In this document: positions 16,658 through 25,148 of the stretch, in pieces | How positions within the stretch are numbered: position 1 is the stretch's first letter | Layout: every line of letters begins with the position of its first letter | Origin: an uncultured candidate division Zixibacteria bacterium | GTDB lineage: Bacteria; Zixibacteria; MSB-5A5; GN15; FEB-12 | DNA: 64,000 nucleotides | Assembly (NCBI GenBank): GCA_963735035.1 | Contig: CAVTJJ010000006.1 | Coordinates: 639,700-703,699 of the forward strand | Direction: 5' to 3' | Translations under genes and position numbers: made by a program | The notes under the pieces: generated by a model | The model's input: the letters and a program-made list of their open reading frames with translations, nothing else | Databases searched by the model: none | Told to the model about the DNA's origin: nothing

Positions 16658-17485
16658 CTATTGTTTGACCGCTCCGGCCGTAATACCCGAAACAATCTGC
16701 CTTTGCATGAACAAAAAGACGATCAATATCGGCACCACCGCGACTGTCGATCCCGCCATAAGATGCGGCCAATCGATGGCCTGATGGCCCTGATAGAGCG
16801 AAAGAGCCACCGGGAGGGTGCGAAGAGACGCGCGCGACGTCAGGATGAACGGAAACAGGAATGAATTCCAGTTAGTGAAGAACACCTGAATTGCCAGCAC
16901 GCCCAAGGCCGGTTTGCAGAGGGGCATGACAATGCGGAAGACTATCCGCAACTCGCCGGCTCCATCTACCCGGGCGGCTTCTTCCATCGAAGGCGGCAAC
17001 GCCTCGATGTACTGCTTGACGAGAAATATGCCTATCGGATTGACCAGCCAAGGGAGAATCAGCGCCCAATAGCTGTCGTAGATGCCGGCTTTGAGGCAGA
17101 TCAGATAGAGCGGGATGATTACGATATGAATCGGGATCATCAGCACGAACAGAGCGGCCCCAAACAGCAATTTGTGTGTCAGAGTCCGGTAGCGCGCCAG
17201 TCCATACGCGGCCAGGAAACAGAAGACAATATTGCCGAGCGTTACAACACCGCCGACCAATATAGAATTGAACAGCGCCCTTCCAATATCCGCTTGTGTG
17301 AACAGGTCGCGAAAGTTCTGGAACGTCCAGGTCGATGAAACCAGGGCGCTCAGATCGGTTCCGTCCGACGGCAACATGAACGACACACGAAACATCCAGA
17401 GTAGCGGAAAGAGCATCGTCAGCGCCACCAGGCCCAGTGCGACGTACCGCAACGTCAGAGAGATGGTGCCTTCCCGACCTACCAT
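16658..17485 (-). CDS. Carbohydrate ABC transporter permease (MalG-type)
   Basis: EEAARVDGA (EAA loop), WNSFLFP, GITAGAVK. Confidence 0.92.
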   Translation of the reverse strand: MVGREGTISLTLRYVALGLVALTMLFPLLWMFRVSFMLPSDGTDLSALVSSTWTFQNFRDLFTQADIGRALFNSILVGGVVTLGNIVFCFLAAYGLARYRTLTHKLLFGAALFVLMIPIHIVIIPLYLICLKAGIYDSYWALILPWLVNPIGIFLVKQYIEALPPSMEEAARVDGAGELRIVFRIVMPLCKPALGVLAIQVFFTNWNSFLFPFILTSRASLRTLPVALSLYQGHQAIDWPHLMAGSTVAVVPILIVFLFMQRQIVSGITAGAVKQ

Positions 17486-18351
17486 AAGGGTCTCTTTCTC
17501 CGCAGCAATAAGAATTGAACTATAGAGAAGATTCCAATTATCATAAAGAGGATGTAGGCCGCGGCAGACGCGTACCCCATCCGGAACGCCGTAGTCAACC
17601 CTTGTTCATAAATGTAATAGACACCCGTGGCAGTGTTGAATTTCCCTTTGGTCATTATGAAGATTTCTACGAACACCTGAAATGATTTAATCGAATTGAT
17701 CACAACTACAAAAAGCATGACCGGTCGCAAGAGCGGCAGAGTAATTGAAGAGAACGTCCTTGCCCGAGAGGCCCCTGCTATTTCCGCAGTCTCGTACAGC
17801 TCGTCCGGAATACTCTGCAGGCCCGCGAGGAAGATCAGCATGTAATAGCCGAGGGACATCCAGACATCCATCGCCATTATCGCATACAGAGCTGTACCAC
17901 TATCGTAAAGATACCCGTTGACCGGTGCCTGCAACCCGATCATCTCGGCCAGGAAGGCAATGTAGCCGCCCCGAGAATACAGGTTCGTGAAGATCAGCGA
18001 AATTACTACGAGAGAGGTAATCGACGGCAGGAAGAACGCCGAGCGAAAGAAGGCTCGTCCCCTAAACTGGCGATTGACCAACAAAGCCATGGCCAAGGAC
18101 AAGACAGTCGTAATCGGGATTGTCCAAAGGACGAATACAAAAGTATTCCAGAGTGATGACAGAAAGGCCGGGTCAATCAGGAGTTGACGATAGTTGTCCC
18201 AACCCACCCATTGGTAGTCAGCCGCAAGGAGGCGGTAGTCGGTGAAACCGATCACGAACGAATAGACTACGGGGAAGGCCCAGAACAAGACGAAAGTGAG
18301 CGTCCACGGTGAAGAGAGACTCAAACCGAGCGACGATCGGGATGACGTCAT
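17479..18351 (-). CDS. Carbohydrate ABC transporter permease (MalF-type)
   Basis: LAGLQSIPDELYETAEIAGA, ITLPLLRP, MGYASAAA. Confidence 0.92.
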   Translation of the reverse strand: MTSSRSSLGLSLSSPWTLTFVLFWAFPVVYSFVIGFTDYRLLAADYQWVGWDNYRQLLIDPAFLSSLWNTFVFVLWTIPITTVLSLAMALLVNRQFRGRAFFRSAFFLPSITSLVVISLIFTNLYSRGGYIAFLAEMIGLQAPVNGYLYDSGTALYAIMAMDVWMSLGYYMLIFLAGLQSIPDELYETAEIAGASRARTFSSITLPLLRPVMLFVVVINSIKSFQVFVEIFIMTKGKFNTATGVYYIYEQGLTTAFRMGYASAAAYILFMIIGIFSIVQFLLLRRKRPLW

Positions 18352-19628
18352 TTCCTGTGGATGTCCGTGATGGTTTTCTGCAATATGCGCAGCGTCTCAC
18401 CTGGGAGCGCGTTCTCGAAAAGCACTTTCTCGACCGCTTTTTCGATCTCGGCTTCGATCAGCACCCAGTCAGGATCGACCGGCGGATGCTCGGAAAGATT
18501 CAACTGCATTACAAAAGTCTGCAGATTCGGGTTTGACTGGAAATACTTGTCCTGCTGAGCGGTGCGACTCGACGGATTCGCCGACCGATTGGCTTTGCAG
18601 AATCGCAGTTGGTTCTCAGGTGAAGTAATAAAATCTATCAGCTTTTGAGCCGCTGCCTGTTGGGCAGACTTGGCGCTAACGGCCAGGAACTCGCCTCCCT
18701 CGAAAGACTTTCCGGGATAGACTGCGGATTGCAACCCGGATACGAATGGGCGACCGGTGCCAAAAGTCGGATCAGGTCCCGGCATTAGACTGGTCGCGAA
18801 ATCGATCTTACGATTCTCCAATTCGATCCGTTTGAGAAGCCAATCGCCCGACATTATGACACCAATCTTCCCATCCAGGAAGGCATCTTCGATACCGCGC
18901 TGATCGGCCACGTAGCCACAGCAATCGTGCAACTTCTTGTAGAATTTGAGGGTCTCGACCGCTTTTTGCGACGCGATCACGCAGTACTTGTTGTCATCGG
19001 AGAAGATATGGCATTTCGCCGACCAGAAGAACGGCATGAATTTCTTGTAAAGCCGATGAGTCTCGGCGGTATTGGAGCCCCAGCCGTAGGTGTTCTTTCC
19101 CAGAGCGGTTACCCTCTGGATAGCGGTATCAAGATCGTCCCAGGAAAGGGGCATGAAATCGCGGGCGTACCCAGCGCGGCCCAACAAGGTGCGATTAAGG
19201 AAGAGGACACGGGTCCCAAGGATCCAGGGTTTGGCATAGATCCTCTCGTTATAGCGGGCCATTGACCAGCCCTGATATTCCAGCTTCTGCGTGGCGACCT
19301 GGTCGGTCAGGTCGGCCAGTTGACCGGTCGCGGCGAATTGGGCAATCCAGTCAGAGCCGAGCTCGACCACGTCTGGAGCCGTCCCCGAAGCGAAAGCGAT
19401 AGCAATCTTCTCATTGCCGTTGGCCCAGGTCAGATCGGTCACGTTGACACGAATGCCCGGATTTTGCTTCTGGAATTCTTCGACCATGGACGTAATGGTC
19501 GGTCTGATTTCCGGATCGGTCCAAAATTGCCACCATTCGAGAGTGGTCTGAGCCGAAAGAGCCGGTGCCAGAACGAGACAAATCAGGAACAATATCAAGC
19601 TGCATTGACGCATATTTACATTCTCCAC
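18348..19628 (-). CDS. Sugar ABC transporter solute-binding protein (family 1)
   Basis: Signal peptide; FQKQNPGI.V, APDV, F.DGKIG.I.SG.W; precedes two permeases. Confidence 0.88.
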   Translation of the reverse strand: MENVNMRQCSLILFLICLVLAPALSAQTTLEWWQFWTDPEIRPTITSMVEEFQKQNPGIRVNVTDLTWANGNEKIAIAFASGTAPDVVELGSDWIAQFAATGQLADLTDQVATQKLEYQGWSMARYNERIYAKPWILGTRVLFLNRTLLGRAGYARDFMPLSWDDLDTAIQRVTALGKNTYGWGSNTAETHRLYKKFMPFFWSAKCHIFSDDNKYCVIASQKAVETLKFYKKLHDCCGYVADQRGIEDAFLDGKIGVIMSGDWLLKRIELENRKIDFATSLMPGPDPTFGTGRPFVSGLQSAVYPGKSFEGGEFLAVSAKSAQQAAAQKLIDFITSPENQLRFCKANRSANPSSRTAQQDKYFQSNPNLQTFVMQLNLSEHPPVDPDWVLIEAEIEKAVEKVLFENALPGETLRILQKTITDIHRK

Positions 19629-19731
19629 ATAGATGGCTCAAGAAGGACCTAACAGTCGCATTGGTCAATTAAAATATCTTTTAGTTGATCGACCCGCTCC
19701 CGGTCTAATCTCTTACAGGGTGGTACATTTG

Positions 19732-20532
19732 ATGCCTGGTGTCATAGTAACGGCCTCCGATCCGGCCTGGATCGATGTTTCCCGGTTGCCGGTTTTGATC
19801 GGGACGGTTCTGGCGGTCGTCATAGTTCTTTATACCACTTATTATCTCCAGGGACGCCGGACCTTCAAGATTCGCGAGATCGCCGGTCTCAAGGCGATTG
19901 AGGAAGCTATCGGCCGGGCCACTGAGATGAACCGCCCCCTGCTATTTACACCGGGGTGGGGGGGCGACATACAGCGACCCACGACATTAGCCTCTATGAA
20001 CATCCTTAGCCATGTCGCCGAAACCACGGCTCGCTACGACTGCCCGCTGGTCTATCCGACTCACGACCCGGTCATCATGTCTGTCGCGCAGGAGGTAATT
20101 CGCGAGAGTTACACCCGGGCGGGCTACCCGGATCGAGTCAGAATGGATCGAACGATGTATGTCTCGTCGTCCCAGTTCGGTTACGCAGCGGCGGTCGAGG
20201 GAATGATCAGCCGCATGCGGCCGGCGTCGGTCTTTCTGCTTGGGACTTTCGAAGCCGAATCTCTGATCCTGGCCGAGACCGGGAATTCGGTGGGTGCGAT
20301 ACAAATCGCCGGTACCGATTCGACTATCCAGCTGGCGTTTTTTATAGTTGCCTGCGATTACACCCTGATCGGTGAGGAGTTGTTTGCCGCCTCCGGATAT
20401 CTGTCAGGCGATCAATCAATAGTAGCCTCGGTAAGGGCGCAGGATATTCTCAAAATGGCCATCGCCGCCATCCTGATCATCGCGACCGTCTGGGTCACGG
20501 CTGAACCTGCCTCAACCTGGTGGAATTTCTAA
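19732..20532 (+). CDS. DUF6754-type membrane protein, function unknown
   Basis: IREIAGLKAIEEAIGRATEM.RP, QFGYAA, GAIQIAG and FFIVACDYTLIGEELFAASGYLS match my recollection of DUF6754; TM-soluble domain-TM layout. Confidence 0.8.
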   Translation: MPGVIVTASDPAWIDVSRLPVLIGTVLAVVIVLYTTYYLQGRRTFKIREIAGLKAIEEAIGRATEMNRPLLFTPGWGGDIQRPTTLASMNILSHVAETTARYDCPLVYPTHDPVIMSVAQEVIRESYTRAGYPDRVRMDRTMYVSSSQFGYAAAVEGMISRMRPASVFLLGTFEAESLILAETGNSVGAIQIAGTDSTIQLAFFIVACDYTLIGEELFAASGYLSGDQSIVASVRAQDILKMAIAAILIIATVWVTAEPASTWWNF

Positions 20533-21155
20533 TGGGGCGGAAACTGCCTCAAATCGTCTGCGGTTTCTTTGGGATTGCTCTGCTGGTCCTGTACTTTTCG
20601 AGCCATCCGACAGCGCGCGCAATCAATCTCGCCGTAATCGAGGACTACTATCAAATCATTTTCGCTTTCACACTGCTGGTCGGGGTGGCCAGTTTTGTCA
20701 AAGTAAACGCCCAGGCCGTTGAACGAGGGGAAGAGCGCCCCTACCGGATAGTCGCGCTGGCCGGTCTGGTAGCAATGCCGACAGTCGCCCTGATCTGGGG
20801 TATCAAAGGTGACTCTCCGTTTATGTGGCTATTTGATAATGTCCAGGTGCCGCTTCAGGCAACAGTCTTCGCACTCCTGGCTTTCTTTGTGGCCTCGGCT
20901 TCTTTCCGGGGATTTCGCGCTCGTTCTACTGCGGCCGGCGTTCTGTTGGTGGCGGCCGTCCTGACACTCCTGAGTCGCTCCGATCTCGGAATTTTCGGTT
21001 CAGACTATGTTACACCCGTGGCCGATTGGCTGCGGAATAACCCGTCGATGGCGGCCCGCCGGGCCATTCTGATAGGCATCGGTCTGGGGTCACTGACAAC
21101 CTCCTTGAGAGTAATTCTGGGCATTGAGCGAACGTGGCAGGGAGGCGGAAGATGA
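20532..21155 (+). CDS. Hypothetical multi-TM membrane protein (DUF6754 operon gene 2)
   Basis: About six TM segments; PLQATVFALLAFFVASASFRGFRARS, AARRAILIG, LRVILGIER; TAATG overlap. Confidence 0.8.
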   Translation: MGRKLPQIVCGFFGIALLVLYFSSHPTARAINLAVIEDYYQIIFAFTLLVGVASFVKVNAQAVERGEERPYRIVALAGLVAMPTVALIWGIKGDSPFMWLFDNVQVPLQATVFALLAFFVASASFRGFRARSTAAGVLLVAAVLTLLSRSDLGIFGSDYVTPVADWLRNNPSMAARRAILIGIGLGSLTTSLRVILGIERTWQGGGR

Positions 21156-21961
21156 ACCTCGACAGCCGCCACTATTGCTTTCTCGGTCTAGGGATTGTGG
21201 TCGTGGTCGCGATGCTGCTTAACGTGCAACCGGTGCAGCAGATATCCGACGAAACCCAGCGCATGTTCAACTATATCGATTCGCTTCCTGAAGGCTCGAC
21301 CCTCATTGTCTCGTTCGATCACGAAGCGTCGGCCCTGCCGGAAATTCGTCCTCTCGCGCTGGCTTTCTTGCGTCAGGCGTTTGCCCGCAATCACCGCCTG
21401 ATAGGAATTGCCCTGTTGGCGGAAGGCACTGGTATCGGCTACGGTCTGATGCACCAGGTGGCGGGCGAACATGGGAGGGAATACGGTCGCGATTATGTCT
21501 ATTTGGGCTTCGCCCCACAGTATATAGCGGCGATCCTCTCCATGGGAGAATCGATCAAGCACACCTTTCCGCAAGACTACACCGGGCGGCCCTGGGATAG
21601 TCTTCCCATGTTGCGAAACATCACCAACTACGCCGACGTCGCGGGCGTGGTTTCGATCACCGACGGTTCCATGGTGATGCACTGGGTGGAGTACGGACAC
21701 GGTCGTTTCGGGGTAACTATTTCGGCATTTGTCGCCGCGGCAATGGCAACGACCTACGATCCATATCTGGCTTCAGGTCAGATGCGGGCGATGGTCAGCG
21801 GACTTCGCGGCGCCGCCGAGTACGAGCAGTTGATCGGCATCGGCGGTTCCGGAGCGCGGGGGATGCTGGCTCAATCCGCGATGCATCTGTATGTTATCGC
21901 CCTGATCGTGATCGGCAACGTGATCTATTTCAAGAGACGGCGGCAGGGAAGGGGAGCCTGA
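21152..21961 (+). CDS. Hypothetical membrane-anchored protein (DUF6754 operon gene 3)
   Basis: TM, alpha/beta domain (IDSLPEGS.LIVSFD, YGRDYVYLG, PYLASGQ...GLRGAAEYE), TM; ATGA overlap. Confidence 0.8.
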   Translation: MNLDSRHYCFLGLGIVVVVAMLLNVQPVQQISDETQRMFNYIDSLPEGSTLIVSFDHEASALPEIRPLALAFLRQAFARNHRLIGIALLAEGTGIGYGLMHQVAGEHGREYGRDYVYLGFAPQYIAAILSMGESIKHTFPQDYTGRPWDSLPMLRNITNYADVAGVVSITDGSMVMHWVEYGHGRFGVTISAFVAAAMATTYDPYLASGQMRAMVSGLRGAAEYEQLIGIGGSGARGMLAQSAMHLYVIALIVIGNVIYFKRRRQGRGA

Positions 21962-22572
21962 TGGACCTGACTACGGTTCTGGGGGCGATTCTCACTCTGG
22001 CGGTGCTATCTTTCCTGTACCGCGATAATCCGTTCTACAAAGTAGCGGAGTCGTTACTTATCGGACTCTCTATCGGCTACGTGCTGGTAATGACCTGGAC
22101 TAACACGCTGATGGCGCGATTAATCGTACCGCTGTTCGAAGATGCCCGACTGGCGTTGATTATTCCGTTCGCGCTCGGGCTGCTGATGTTCGGTCGGTTC
22201 CACTCCAGGACCGCTATCTGGTCGCGAATTCCGATTGGACTGCTAATCGGTTCCGGCGCCGGTGTAGCCATTCCGGCGATGCTTGGTGCCCGAACCATGA
22301 CCCAAATGTCATCGACAGTTCAGCCGCTTTGGGGCGAGGGCGTATTCAACTTCTCAGCGGTTGTCGTCCTGTGCGGCGTGCTCTGTACGCTCGCCTATTT
22401 CTACTTCACTCGGGAACACCGGGGGGCGTTTGGTCGGGTGGCCAGGACCGGCACCTGGTTTCTGATGATCTTCTTTGGCACCACTTTTGGCTACACGGTT
22501 ATGTCAAGAATGTCCACTTTGATCGGCCGGGTGGAGTTCCTTCTGGGCGACCTTTTACACCTCCTGCGATAA
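21961..22572 (+). CDS. Hypothetical multi-TM membrane protein (DUF6754 operon gene 4)
   Basis: SFLYRDNPFYKVAE, YFYFTREH and FLMIFFGTTFGYTVMSR; about six TM segments; TGATG overlap. Confidence 0.8.
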   Translation: MDLTTVLGAILTLAVLSFLYRDNPFYKVAESLLIGLSIGYVLVMTWTNTLMARLIVPLFEDARLALIIPFALGLLMFGRFHSRTAIWSRIPIGLLIGSGAGVAIPAMLGARTMTQMSSTVQPLWGEGVFNFSAVVVLCGVLCTLAYFYFTREHRGAFGRVARTGTWFLMIFFGTTFGYTVMSRMSTLIGRVEFLLGDLLHLLR

Positions 22573-22575
22573 ACT

Positions 22576-22704
22576 ATGGCCCTGATTTGCCCCAAGTGCC
22601 GTTGCGCGATGAAAGAGCAGAAGCGGGTCTTTCATAAACGCCGCAAATGGATTTGTCCCCGTTGCGGCCGCGTCCGATTTCAAGTACCTACGAAACCACG
22701 GTAG
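22576..22704 (+). CDS. 42-aa basic zinc-ribbon microprotein (below ORF-track cutoff)
   Basis: MALICPKCRCAMKEQKRVFHKRRKWICPRCGRVRFQVPTKPR; two CPxC knuckles; ATG 3 nt after the previous stop. Confidence 0.7.
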   Translation: MALICPKCRCAMKEQKRVFHKRRKWICPRCGRVRFQVPTKPR

Positions 22705-22850
22705 CCTGAAACTCTCCGGCGCAATTTTCCGTACTATACCTCGAATTTCGGTACTAAGCTCAAGTAGTAACTTCGATGAACAACTGGGGGCTTTTGCCCT
22801 GTTTTTAGGCTGGGAGTCGCGTGAAAATCCGGTTCCGGCCCCGATTTTGG

Positions 22851-22878
22851 TTGACGCTACTCGCTTGTTTAGTAAACT
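22851..22878 (+). promoter_or_regulatory. Putative sigma70 promoter of the ABC-2 operon
   Basis: TTGACG-N16-TAAACT upstream of AGGAG RBS. Confidence 0.45.
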
Positions 22879-22903
22879 ACTCAACTTATATGCAGGAGTG
22901 CCA

Positions 22904-23833
22904 ATGCATTTGAAGCTGGAAAATATCAGCAAGCAGTACGACGGCAAAATAGCCGTGGAAGACCTCTGCCTGGAAGTCCCGAAAGGGGTTATCTACGGCA
23001 TGATCGGTCCCAACGGCGCCGGTAAGACCACGACCATCAGAATGGTCATGGATATCGTCCCGCCCGACTCGGGACGGGTCCTCATTGAGGGGCGCGAAGC
23101 CGACGGCCCGGCTCGCGACCGAATCGGCTACTTGCCCGAAGAGCGGGGCCTCTACAAGAAATTCACCCTCCGTGAAGTCATCACTTATCTGGCCGAACTA
23201 AAGGGATGCCCCAAAGCGGAAATCAGTCGGCGCATCGGTCCCTGGCTGGAACGCATGAATCTCAAGGAATATGAACTGAAGAAGGTAGAAGAGCTGTCCA
23301 AGGGGATGGCCCAGAAACTCCAGTTCATCACCACTGTTCTGCACGAACCCGACATTGTCATACTTGACGAAATCTTCTCCGGCCTCGATCCGATCAACAT
23401 CGAAGTCGTGAAAGATGTCTTGCTGGAGCTGAAGCGTAAAGGCACGACCATCCTGTTTTCGACACACGTCATGGAGCAGGCCGAGAAGTTGTGTGACCAC
23501 ATTTGCATGATCTCGCGCGGGCACAAGGTTCTCGACGGCCGCATCGGCGATATCAAGACACGATTCGGACGTAATTCGGTACAGATGTCATTTGAAGGTG
23601 ATGGCCACTTTATAAAGACCCTCCCGGGTGTCAAAGAGGTTAGGGAGTTCAACACTTACGTGGAACTTCAACTGACCGGCGAAGTGCCGCCTCACGAACT
23701 ACTGAAAGCCGCGGTAGAGCGGCTCAAGGTGAGCCGGTTCGAAGTCATGGCGCCGTCGCTGTACGACATCTTCATTGAGCAGGCCAAGGTCGATCCGGCT
23801 GAGCTCAATCAGAAGGGAGAACACCATGCGTAA
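22904..23833 (+). CDS. ABC-2 type ATP-binding protein (NatA/YhaQ-like)
   Basis: GPNGAGKTT, IGYLPEERGLY, LSKGM, ILDE, STH; AGGAG RBS. Confidence 0.92.
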   Translation: MHLKLENISKQYDGKIAVEDLCLEVPKGVIYGMIGPNGAGKTTTIRMVMDIVPPDSGRVLIEGREADGPARDRIGYLPEERGLYKKFTLREVITYLAELKGCPKAEISRRIGPWLERMNLKEYELKKVEELSKGMAQKLQFITTVLHEPDIVILDEIFSGLDPINIEVVKDVLLELKRKGTTILFSTHVMEQAEKLCDHICMISRGHKVLDGRIGDIKTRFGRNSVQMSFEGDGHFIKTLPGVKEVREFNTYVELQLTGEVPPHELLKAAVERLKVSRFEVMAPSLYDIFIEQAKVDPAELNQKGEHHA

Positions 23834-25148
23834 ATTCTGGGTGATTCTCCAGCGCGAGTACGCACAGCTCGTACACAAGAAGTCGTTCTTGTTTACCACA
23901 CTCCTGACACCCGTACTCATGGTCGTTATGATGTTCCTGCCTGCGTTCCTGATGCAGAAGGGTTCGAATACCACCGAAGTGTACTCGGTCATCGATCTGG
24001 ACGGCCATGGCCTCGGTCGCGAACTCACGAACGGCGTTGCAAGCTACAAGCTTAGCGATACCTCCAAAGCGGCGTTTCGGCTCGACCGCCTGGAAGAGAT
24101 TCCCGCGTCAGATACGGCTCGGTTTGGCGAAACCTACCGCCACCTGGTGCAGTGCATCCGGGACAGCGGCCTTACTTATCTCTTCGTGATCAAGCCGAAT
24201 GCGTACCTTGCGGATTCCAACCTGCTGCTGGTGACGAACTCGGACAATATTCGCGCTATAGGCCGGTTTGAATCTCAACTCGGCCAGGTGCTGTCGCGCC
24301 GACGAGTCGAAGTCAGTGGGATCAACATTCCCATCGATTCGATCATGGCGCTCACTCGGAGCGTAGACCTGCCCCGTCAGGACACGAAGGGTGAATCGGT
24401 CAGCCCTGAGATCAAGTTCATGTTCGGCATGGTCCTGATGATGTTGATCTATATGCTAATTTTGATCAACGGACAATGGATGATGCAGGCGGTGATCGAG
24501 GAGAAGTCGGCGCGAATCATGGAAGTGTTGGTTTCTTCGGCTACGCCATTCCAAATTATGGCCGGCAAGATTTTCGGAAGCGGCCTGGCCGCTCTCACCC
24601 AGGTAGCTATCTGGATCGCCGGCGGCGCGGCCATGATGGCATTCGCATCGTCGACCGGAACCCAGATCGATCCGTCGATCACAAAGGTCGTGTTCAATCC
24701 GGCTACGATCATCTGTTTCGCCGCTTTCCTTGTCCTGGGCTACCTGCTGTTCTCGACTATCTTCGCCTTTGTCGGCTCCCTGGTTAACAGCACCAAAGAT
24801 GCTCAGCCTCTGATGATGCCGATTATTGTAGTCTTCTTCATTCCGGGTATGATGATCGGCATGGCAGCGTTGCAGATGCCCGACGAGGGATGGATTCGAA
24901 TAGTGTCGTTCATCCCGACTTACGCACCTCTGGTGATGATGATAAGAGTGGCGATACTGGCGCCCAGTTTTGAGGGCAATCCGCTGCTGTCACCCATCAT
25001 GCTGGAAGCTGTCATTAGCATGATCGGCATCGTGATAGCATTGGTAGGGGCGGTATGGGTTACGGGACGCGTGTTCCGGATAGGGATTCTCATGTACGGC
25101 AAGCGACCGACGCTACCGGAAATCATGCGCTGGATAAGGCACAGTTAA
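23826..25148 (+). CDS. ABC-2 type permease (NatB/YhaP-like)
   Basis: VIEEKSARIMEVLVSS, IMAGKIFG and FRIGILMYGK motifs. Confidence 0.9.
   Translation: MRKFWVILQREYAQLVHKKSFLFTTLLTPVLMVVMMFLPAFLMQKGSNTTEVYSVIDLDGHGLGRELTNGVASYKLSDTSKAAFRLDRLEEIPASDTARFGETYRHLVQCIRDSGLTYLFVIKPNAYLADSNLLLVTNSDNIRAIGRFESQLGQVLSRRRVEVSGINIPIDSIMALTRSVDLPRQDTKGESVSPEIKFMFGMVLMMLIYMLILINGQWMMQAVIEEKSARIMEVLVSSATPFQIMAGKIFGSGLAALTQVAIWIAGGAAMMAFASSTGTQIDPSITKVVFNPATIICFAAFLVLGYLLFSTIFAFVGSLVNSTKDAQPLMMPIIVVFFIPGMMIGMAALQMPDEGWIRIVSFIPTYAPLVMMIRVAILAPSFEGNPLLSPIMLEAVISMIGIVIALVGAVWVTGRVFRIGILMYGKRPTLPEIMRWIRHS

Follow-up and report, generated by a model that had tools for sequence, protein, structure and literature searches.

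Energy-coupling factor (ECF) transporters share an energising module, and CUT1-type importers of the ATP-binding cassette (ABC) class share one MsiK-type ATPase, an arrangement that serves here as a working analogy. Type VII ABC systems such as MacB, LolCDE and FtsEX, which transmit force to periplasmic domains, offer a second analogy of this kind, and the PilM-PilN-PilO and GspL-GspM assembly platforms a third. GlmL/MutL and Or-4, in turn, are accessory ASKHA (actin/Hsp70-fold) proteins of the B12-dependent glutamate mutase and ornithine aminomutase. We compared with these systems a cassette of four membrane-protein genes (g1 to g4), followed by a short zinc-ribbon gene (g5), that occupies positions 19732-22704 of a 64,000-nucleotide (nt) stretch of DNA from an uncultured candidate division Zixibacteria bacterium (assembly GCA_963735035.1, contig CAVTJJ010000006.1, positions 639,700 to 703,699), hereafter the window. 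On balance, we favour the reading that g1 to g4 form a four-subunit membrane head, one of five in this genome, that docks on a shared GlmL/MutL-like ATPase and works as a transport or force-transmitting machine.

The locus resembles each of these systems in part. As in the ECF and the MsiK-sharing CUT1 importers, one ATPase is found with scattered membrane modules that carry varied outward-facing parts (here, one ATPase and five cassettes); however, this ATPase has an actin/Hsp70 rather than an ABC fold, no family of the ABC, EcfT or S-component kind is matched by the cassette, and the coupling between the two is predicted. With the type VII ABC systems the locus has in common that membrane helices are combined with an ATPase in the cytoplasm and with sizeable domains in the periplasm, but g1 to g4 have no FtsX or MacB_PCD match, the fold of the motor is another one and the membrane subunits are four distinct proteins. 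In PilM-PilN-PilO and GspL-GspM, an actin-fold protein docks on the cytoplasmic portions of membrane proteins with alpha/beta periplasmic domains, akin to the arrangement we propose, yet no pilus or secretion genes lie by the cassette, its g2 and g4 proteins are polytopic, and the sequences are unrelated. Among named proteins, those nearest to the proposed motor are GlmL/MutL and Or-4 (PF13941), a model that the ATPase of this genome matches over its full length (427.9 bits). It differs from GlmL/MutL proper in that it scores below the equivalog cut-offs (237 bits against a cut-off of 475 for GlmL/MutL, NF040745; 223 bits against 600 for Or-4, NF040744), carries a C-terminal extension of about 130 amino acids (aa), and has no mutase subunit genes that we could find among its neighbours.

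The only curated family that describes any of the four membrane subunits is DUF6754 (PF20539), a Pfam family without assigned function, whose model is matched essentially throughout by g1 (profile positions 3-249 of 257; E 5.4e-94; 314.5 bits, cut-off 27) and which covers none of g2, g3 and g4. These three have no significant Pfam match and no NCBIfam match, including none at the sequence level to TRAP, TTT or mannose-type phosphotransferase system (PTS) transporters at E up to 1; sequence and profile searches of the PDB returned no relative of solved structure for any of g1 to g4. At E up to 1, no protein of the cassette matched ABC_tran, BPD_transp, ABC2 or FtsX in Pfam, so that neither an ABC nucleotide-binding domain nor an ABC membrane domain was found, and the PADLOC models of anti-phage defence returned no family for any of the five proteins at E up to 0.1. 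The g5 product has only weak zinc-ribbon matches in Pfam.

An earlier note on this DNA, made from the sequence alone, had described four membrane-protein genes chained by overlaps and followed by a zinc-ribbon ORF, named the first of them DUF6754, and assigned to the four membrane proteins two architectures and a set of partner motifs. Reading of the sequence bears out five plus-strand genes and the stop/start overlaps (TAATG at 20530-20534, ATGA at 21152-21155 and TGATG at 21959-21963), with g5 starting 3 nt past the g4 stop, and the profile match given above settles the identity of g1. Hydropathy for all four subunits, together with AlphaFold2 models of g1 and g3, agrees with two proteins of transmembrane (TM)-alpha/beta-TM layout and two with about six TM segments. 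The motifs named for the partners turned out to be invariant in the family alignments, at G197, E199 and R200 of g2, at G217, G220, A221, A222, E223 and E225 of g3, and at Y20, D22, N23, P24, Y26 and E30 of g4. A pattern scan likewise concurs that Walker A and heme-binding (CxxCH) motifs are absent from the cassette proteins; CxxC is confined to g5.

The four-gene order is conserved wherever the family could be followed. DUF6754 is matched five times in the genome that carries the window (3.6 Mb, 97% complete), and each of these five genes heads a g1-g2-g3-g4 set in the same order, as determined by tblastn: the copy in the window, a copy on contig C4 at about 446.2-449.2 kb, and three copies arranged head to tail on C4 at about 1203.4-1214.8 kb. 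The latter constitute a tandem array of twelve genes (C4:1203395-1214807; loci L006 and L007), in which the stop of g4 overlaps the start of the next g1. All four g1 paralogs outside the window match DUF6754, and each has a signal peptide and is extended at its N-terminus, by as much as about 270 aa; the extensions in the tandem array measure roughly 150-270 aa, and one of them has a weak fn3 match.

We then considered 80 orthologous loci from species genomes, in which g1 is 66-78% identical. All four genes were present in 61 of these, the remaining 19 being cut by contig ends, and the overlaps between adjacent genes were retained in 76/79 scorable cases for g1/g2, 74/77 for g2/g3 and 56/68 for g3/g4 (start codons were picked by a nearest-start heuristic). 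This conservation is far beyond chance. A second sample consisted of 79 metagenome loci, found with a profile built from both orthologs and paralogs; their g1 proteins are mostly just 41-57% identical to any of the five paralogs of our genome, and the loci therefore represent a broad sample of the family. In all cases with at least 2300 nt of sequence downstream of the DUF6754 gene (53/53), genes of the g2, g3 and g4 types followed in order, and in 8 of the 79 loci the cassette was repeated in tandem, in two or more units. One metagenome locus (L095:6635-12803) keeps the order with about 1 kb between g2 and g3 and 1.8 kb between g3 and g4, and is the sole locus of this kind that we saw.

Across the phylum, PF20539 was present in every sampled genome (151/151), typically with about five matches each, and in none of 14 control genomes. 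Clusters of g1 look-alikes are commonest in Zixibacteria, Bacillota and Planctomycetota, and those of g4 look-alikes in Bacillota, Chloroflexota and Bathyarchaeota. A profile of g4 retrieved 2700 representatives at 50% identity with E<=0.001, 601 of them with E<=1e-30; since no curated model exists for them, the partner families are large yet uncatalogued.

Natural gene fusions also connect the subunits. Of 36 longer relatives of g4, seven are g3+g4 fusions, 25 are interrupted near g4 position 125-130 by 330-380 aa of inserted sequence, and four have an extra N-terminal part; none of the seven longer relatives that we scanned (two fusions, three insert-bearing and two N-terminally extended proteins) had a Pfam match. 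Nine longer relatives of g2 comprise three that contain a g3-like alpha/beta domain, inserted between g2 positions ~88-100, five that contain other inserts at the same place, and one with an N-terminal extension; two of the inserts are annotated as FG-GAP/VCBS repeats. The inserts across the g4 and g2 relatives measure 330-390 aa and occupy one loop in each protein (P0129, P0131-P0139 and P0142-P0156 for g4; P0159-P0161, P0163 and P0164 for g2). Gene fusions therefore tie g3 to both g4 and g2. The proposal in the earlier note of an obligate heteromeric membrane complex, whose four families ought to co-occur and stay syntenic elsewhere, gains support on both counts: synteny is strict (5/5 sets in our own genome, 61/61 complete orthologous loci and 53/53 metagenome cases), g3 and g4 are fused in some relatives, and a g3-like domain lies inside g2 in others. 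Taken together, g1 to g4 very probably encode a heteromeric complex of the inner membrane.

The candidate motor of this complex is encoded elsewhere in the genome. A single PF13941 gene was found, at C4:1201040-1202899, divergent from the tandem DUF6754 array, and its 619-aa product is the long-form ATPase described above. It is the first gene of a minus-strand operon (L006:6121-9900, equivalent to C4:1199120-1202899), in which it is followed by a gene for a 260-aa protein that carries a signal peptide as well as a C-terminal TM segment, and by a gene for a 373-aa soluble partner that has a weak Biotin_lipoyl match (E 0.0017). The operon adjoins a tolQ-tolR-tolA/tonB-like-tolB-pal-ybgF gene group. 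A PDB sequence search found no solved relative of either the ATPase or the 373-aa partner.

PF13941 was found in all sampled genomes of the phylum in which it was sought (41/41), almost always as a single copy, and no match above the cut-off occurred in the 14 control genomes. In at least 18 genomes with coordinates for both families, the ATPase gene lies 1-4 kb from a DUF6754 match, a count based on the 150 of 729 PF20539 matches listed with coordinates in the phylum search. Of 24 short loci taken around the ATPase gene, 22 have the gene for the 373-aa partner downstream of it. Among the 79 metagenome loci, seven have the ATPase and its partner beside the cassette, in three different arrangements: divergent (L120, L133 and L137), upstream on the same strand (L121 and L126) and downstream on the same strand (L105 and L134); the ATPases of the four same-strand loci share 63-67% identity with that of our genome. 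Conservation of the ATPase is high, with 63-88% identity in all 31 loci compared and a mean column identity of 81% over 25 sequences, and its invariant positions include what we take to be the phosphate-1, phosphate-2 and adenosine motifs of ASKHA proteins.

Structure prediction points to the g1 cytoplasmic domain as the site at which head and motor would meet. We modelled the ATPase with residues 43-229 of the window g1, using our own alignments, in three runs and with three controls. The pair reached ipSAE values of 0.66, 0.65 and 0.65, as compared with 0.00 for the best of the three controls; in reference sets, 116 of 157 solved complexes and 2 of 215 mismatched pairs attained this mark, a calibration that is rough here, as our own alignments were used. 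The runs agreed in at least 90% of the contacts, and the pLDDT of the partner was at least 81. On the g1 side, the predicted interface consists of residues 51, 57-59, 61-62, 64-68, 101-103, 185, 188-190 and 205-211, taking in the invariant A59, G61, R62, T64, E65, M66, Y102, C208 and D209; on the ATPase side it takes in a glycine-rich stretch at 161-170. The model is unlikely to be the recall of a known complex, because neither chain has a solved relative by sequence, and, as a prediction, it supports an interaction in which the cytoplasmic domain of g1 binds the ATPase. The g1 docking motif (GRATEM) is invariant in all five paralogs of our genome, which fits a shared motor; we consider it fairly probable that the window cassette is one of five heads served by one actin-fold ATPase.

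The predicted topology places domains on both faces of the membrane. Hydropathy locates the TM segments of g1 at residues 12-41 and 230-262 and those of g3 at 5-32 and 236-261. Because basic residues follow the first TM segment of g1, and because the signal peptides of its paralogs precede outward extensions, g1 should have both termini outside and its Rossmann-like domain in the cytoplasm, between TM1 and TM2. In g3, the basic tail KRRRQGR implies that both termini should lie inside, with the Rossmann-like domain in the periplasm. Both termini of g2 are probably cytoplasmic and its loop near residues 94-102 probably periplasmic; this is the loop that harbours the g3-like domain in some relatives and FG-GAP repeats, typically extracellular, in others, in agreement with a periplasmic g3. 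The side predicted to be cytoplasmic is also where the basic loops of g2 and g4 are found. All seven g3+g4 fusions carry exactly one extra hydrophobic segment in the linker, which agrees with this topology because the cytoplasmic end of g3 must be joined to an outward g4 start.

AlphaFold2 models built from 35-row alignments (pLDDT 83.5 and pTM 0.76 for g1; pLDDT 92.6 and pTM 0.87 for g3) depict both proteins as a TM helix, a six-stranded alpha/beta domain and a second TM helix. Comparison of the models with known structures (Foldseek, VIA-align) gave flat lists, with Z falling from 10.2 (3u31, root mean square deviation 3.9, 144 aligned residues) to 8.8 at rank 50 for g1, and from 9.3 (1kjn, root mean square deviation 4.0, 139 aligned) to 7.8 at rank 50 for g3. 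The matches include short-chain dehydrogenases/reductases (SDRs), RCK/TrkA domains, halves of glycosyltransferase B (GT-B) folds, sirtuins and lobes of sugar-binding proteins. An internal duplication of the type A-B-A'-B', in which g1 and g3 on the one hand and g2 and g4 on the other would be related, was rejected by BLASTP and by profile-profile comparison (probability 2% for g1/g3 and 0.8% for g2/g4); g1 and g3 are alike in their general layout of TM segment, six-stranded alpha/beta domain and TM segment only.

These data can be combined into a model of how the system might work. In this model, g1 would place one Rossmann-like domain in the cytoplasm and g3 another in the periplasm, and g2 and g4 would supply about twelve further membrane helices. 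The cassette, having no energy source of its own, would draw on the single ASKHA ATPase of the genome, on which the g1 cytoplasmic domain would dock; movements driven by ATP would then be relayed by the membrane helices to the domains that face outward. Several interchangeable heads in the membrane would share a single motor, in the manner of ECF or MsiK-type ABC systems. The variable parts of the heads are predicted to lie on the outward side, in the form of fn3 or propeller-like extensions of g1, FG-GAP inserts of g2 and the 330-380 aa inserts of g4 (25/36 longer relatives). Transport, probably uptake with substrates specific to each head, is the most likely work of such a machine, and transmission of force to the envelope would come second; ATP-driven transport is favoured because the docking domain of g1 would lie opposite the periplasmic domains, the cassette is present in multiple copies, and it is universal in the phylum. 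A wider and more tentative proposal, to which we give somewhat less than even weight, is that DUF6754 cassettes in general are the heads of an unrecognised class of primary active machines with an actin/Hsp70-fold motor, distinct from ABC, P-type and rotary systems. In such a class, interchangeable four-subunit heads would share the motor, which is extremely conserved, and its lipoyl-like partner, and the outward domains would set the target.

Several results weigh against the view that the cassette is driven by this ATPase. The window cassette and the ATPase gene lie on different contigs, and 72 of the 79 metagenome loci have no ATPase within flanks of 7 kb. Since both families are universal in the phylum (151/151 and 41/41 genomes), their co-occurrence within it is uninformative; the genomes behind loci labelled Acidoferrum, Ignavibacterium and FCB group all carry the ATPase as well, and these loci resemble this phylum and are equally uninformative. 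No shared functional theme was found among the neighbouring genes across the diverse metagenome loci, and the Foldseek and VIA-align searches with g1 and g3 models yielded generic Rossmann-like folds only, with no specific relative. The docking itself is a model, not a measurement, and its interface on g1 is not significantly enriched in conserved positions (16/25 as compared with 12.7 expected, p = 0.11), because half of the g1 domain is conserved, or in invariant ones (10/25 as compared with 6.3 expected, p = 0.06).

Some of the evidence would also fit a cassette that is a self-contained secondary transporter or channel, in which an ion gradient drives the solute and the soluble domains bind or regulate. 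Such a protein would need no nucleotide-binding motif, and none is present in the cassette; the distance of the ATPase gene from the window copy and from most metagenome loci would be natural, as would the polar invariant residues in membrane helices (for example Q241, H245 and N256 of g3), and the generic fold matches of g1 include regulatory domains of the RCK/TrkA type. However, the g1 domain is predicted to dock on an ATPase, with the controls at zero, through a motif that does not vary among the five paralogs; that ATPase is encoded in every sampled genome of the phylum and adjoins a cassette array; and searches of Pfam, NCBIfam and the PDB revealed no sequence similarity to any known transporter family. 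We therefore regard a self-contained secondary transporter as unlikely. The earlier note had offered an ATP-independent transporter as one possibility, beside a membrane-embedded sensor or enzyme, and this part of it has lost ground: the cassette itself indeed has no ATPase, and the suggestion may still apply to the window copy, but the single ATPase beside the DUF6754 array, its presence in 41/41 genomes and the docking model now make it the less likely reading.

That no solute is moved at all, and that the complex is an envelope machine or sensor which relays information or force, for example in Tol-Pal-linked envelope maintenance, seems rather improbable to us. The domains predicted on both membrane faces would suit such a role, the fn3, FG-GAP and propeller-like outward domains resemble binders of macromolecules more than binders of small solutes, and in this phylum the ATPase operon abuts the tolQ-tolR-tolA/tonB-like-tolB-pal genes. 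This adjacency, however, was seen only in loci that resemble this phylum (ATPase 85-88% identical), and clusters of g1 and g4 look-alikes also occur in Bacillota and in archaea, which are not known to possess Tol-Pal. Moreover, no subunit contains a kinase, cyclase or DNA-binding output domain by Pfam and NCBIfam, and five to ten copies per genome fit a diversity of substrates better than a single structural role.

Very unlikely, in our estimate, is a membrane enzyme of glycosyltransferase-like or other nucleotide-using type, with catalysis residing in the g1 domain, the g3 domain or both and the ATPase acting as a chaperone. A chaperone role has been proposed for GlmL with glutamate mutase, and relatives of GlmL accompany Rossmann-like B12-binding subunits; GT-B halves, sirtuin-like folds and SDRs appear among the structural matches, and g1 has many invariant acidic or polar residues (E176, E182, Q191, T195, D209, E215 and E216). 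Against this stand the flat and generic character of the match lists, which come with no cofactor motif, the occurrence of GxGxxG-type patterns in g3 only and never at an invariant position, and the lack of any B12 mutase gene among the neighbours of the ATPase. In addition, the g1 and g3 domains are predicted on opposite faces of the membrane and so could not form one GT-B-like cleft.

If a head docked on a shared ATPase is indeed what the cassette encodes, a membrane system that all sampled genomes of a phylum encode, typically in about five copies, has escaped study; an actin-fold ATPase would join the short list of motors that power membrane transport or force transmission, and an explanation would be at hand for hundreds of proteins of uncultured anaerobes that are annotated as "hypothetical membrane protein". 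The four-gene order, the fusions and the predicted GRATEM docking surface make this reading directly testable. A literature search, with most subscription journals outside its reach, found nothing that contains "DUF6754" or "PF20539"; a search on PF13941 or on GlmL as the glutamate mutase ATPase returned nothing relevant, and broader matches to GlmL, MutL or ASKHA appear unrelated.

Within the family, the copy in the window is a minimal head, composed of a g1 that has no outward extension and accompanied by a zinc-ribbon microprotein (Table 1). The gene for the latter, g5, is present as a single copy in the genome and is specific to the paralog group of the window; among the 57 orthologous loci that have an intact g4 and 300 nt or more of sequence beyond it, 49 carry g5, abutting g4 in eight of these, and its C5, C8, C27 and C30 are invariant in 22 aligned copies. 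The specificity of this head may come from the zinc-ribbon microprotein or from the divergently encoded binding protein described below. An alternative start of g1 at 19633 is possible and would leave 4 nt between it and the start of the gene for the divergent binding protein; alignments of g1 orthologs begin near 19732. A consensus scan of 19629-19731 found no convincing sigma-70 site upstream of g1, and no Rfam match was obtained in 19400-23000 at E up to 1. The terminator-like hairpin downstream of g5 (22785-22801), together with the promoter-like site that comes after it, suggests that the transcription unit ends there; both are consensus matches only.

Table 1. Features of the cassette region in the window, with coordinates given on the window and 1 as its first nucleotide.
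Feature	Position	Strand	Description
intergenic region	19629-19731	.	lies between the divergent sugar-binding-protein gene and g1; divergent promoters presumed
g1	19732-20532	+	266 aa; DUF6754 (PF20539); 2 TM segments and a Rossmann-like domain at about residues 43-229
g2	20532-21155	+	207 aa; about six TM segments by hydropathy; no curated family
g3	21152-21961	+	269 aa; TM segment, alpha/beta Rossmann-like domain, TM segment; tail KRRRQGR
g4	21961-22572	+	203 aa; about six TM segments; invariant YxDNPxY...E; no curated family
g5	22576-22704	+	42-aa basic C4 zinc-ribbon microprotein (CPxC...CPxC)
terminator-like hairpin and T run	22785-22808	+	consensus scan only; probable end of the transcription unit
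promoter-like site of the next operon	22851-22878		consensus match only

In all 80 orthologous loci, g1 is divergent from a CUT1-type sugar importer composed of a binding protein and two permeases (16658-19628 of the window, minus strand). The permeases have ordinary EAA loops, and the operon itself does not include a gene for an ATPase; OB_MalK is absent from the genome, and one TOBE_2-bearing frame is present, at C4:53033-53239. A functional tie of this importer to the cassette was considered and dropped, as the TOBE_2 frame provides a candidate for an ordinary orphan ABC ATPase. Given this candidate and the ordinary EAA loops, the neighbourhood is treated as conserved gene order and not as evidence of joint function.

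Other neighbours were noted in passing. Around the cassette at 446-449 kb of C4, a gene for PTS enzyme I (L008:14664-16748, minus strand; C4:452660-454748) lies about 3.4 kb away, with an 89-aa open reading frame (ORF) beside it that resembles HPr, by reading only; the stretch examined there showed no gene for a PTS permease. The cassette of the window is followed by genes for an ABC-2 exporter pair (ATPase at 22847-23833 and permease at 23775-25148), as are its counterparts in many orthologous loci. The spacing between g5 and the ABC-2 ATPase is about 1 kb in most of these loci and only 143 nt in the window; in one of them, a 278-aa ORF fills this space (L009:9004-9840).

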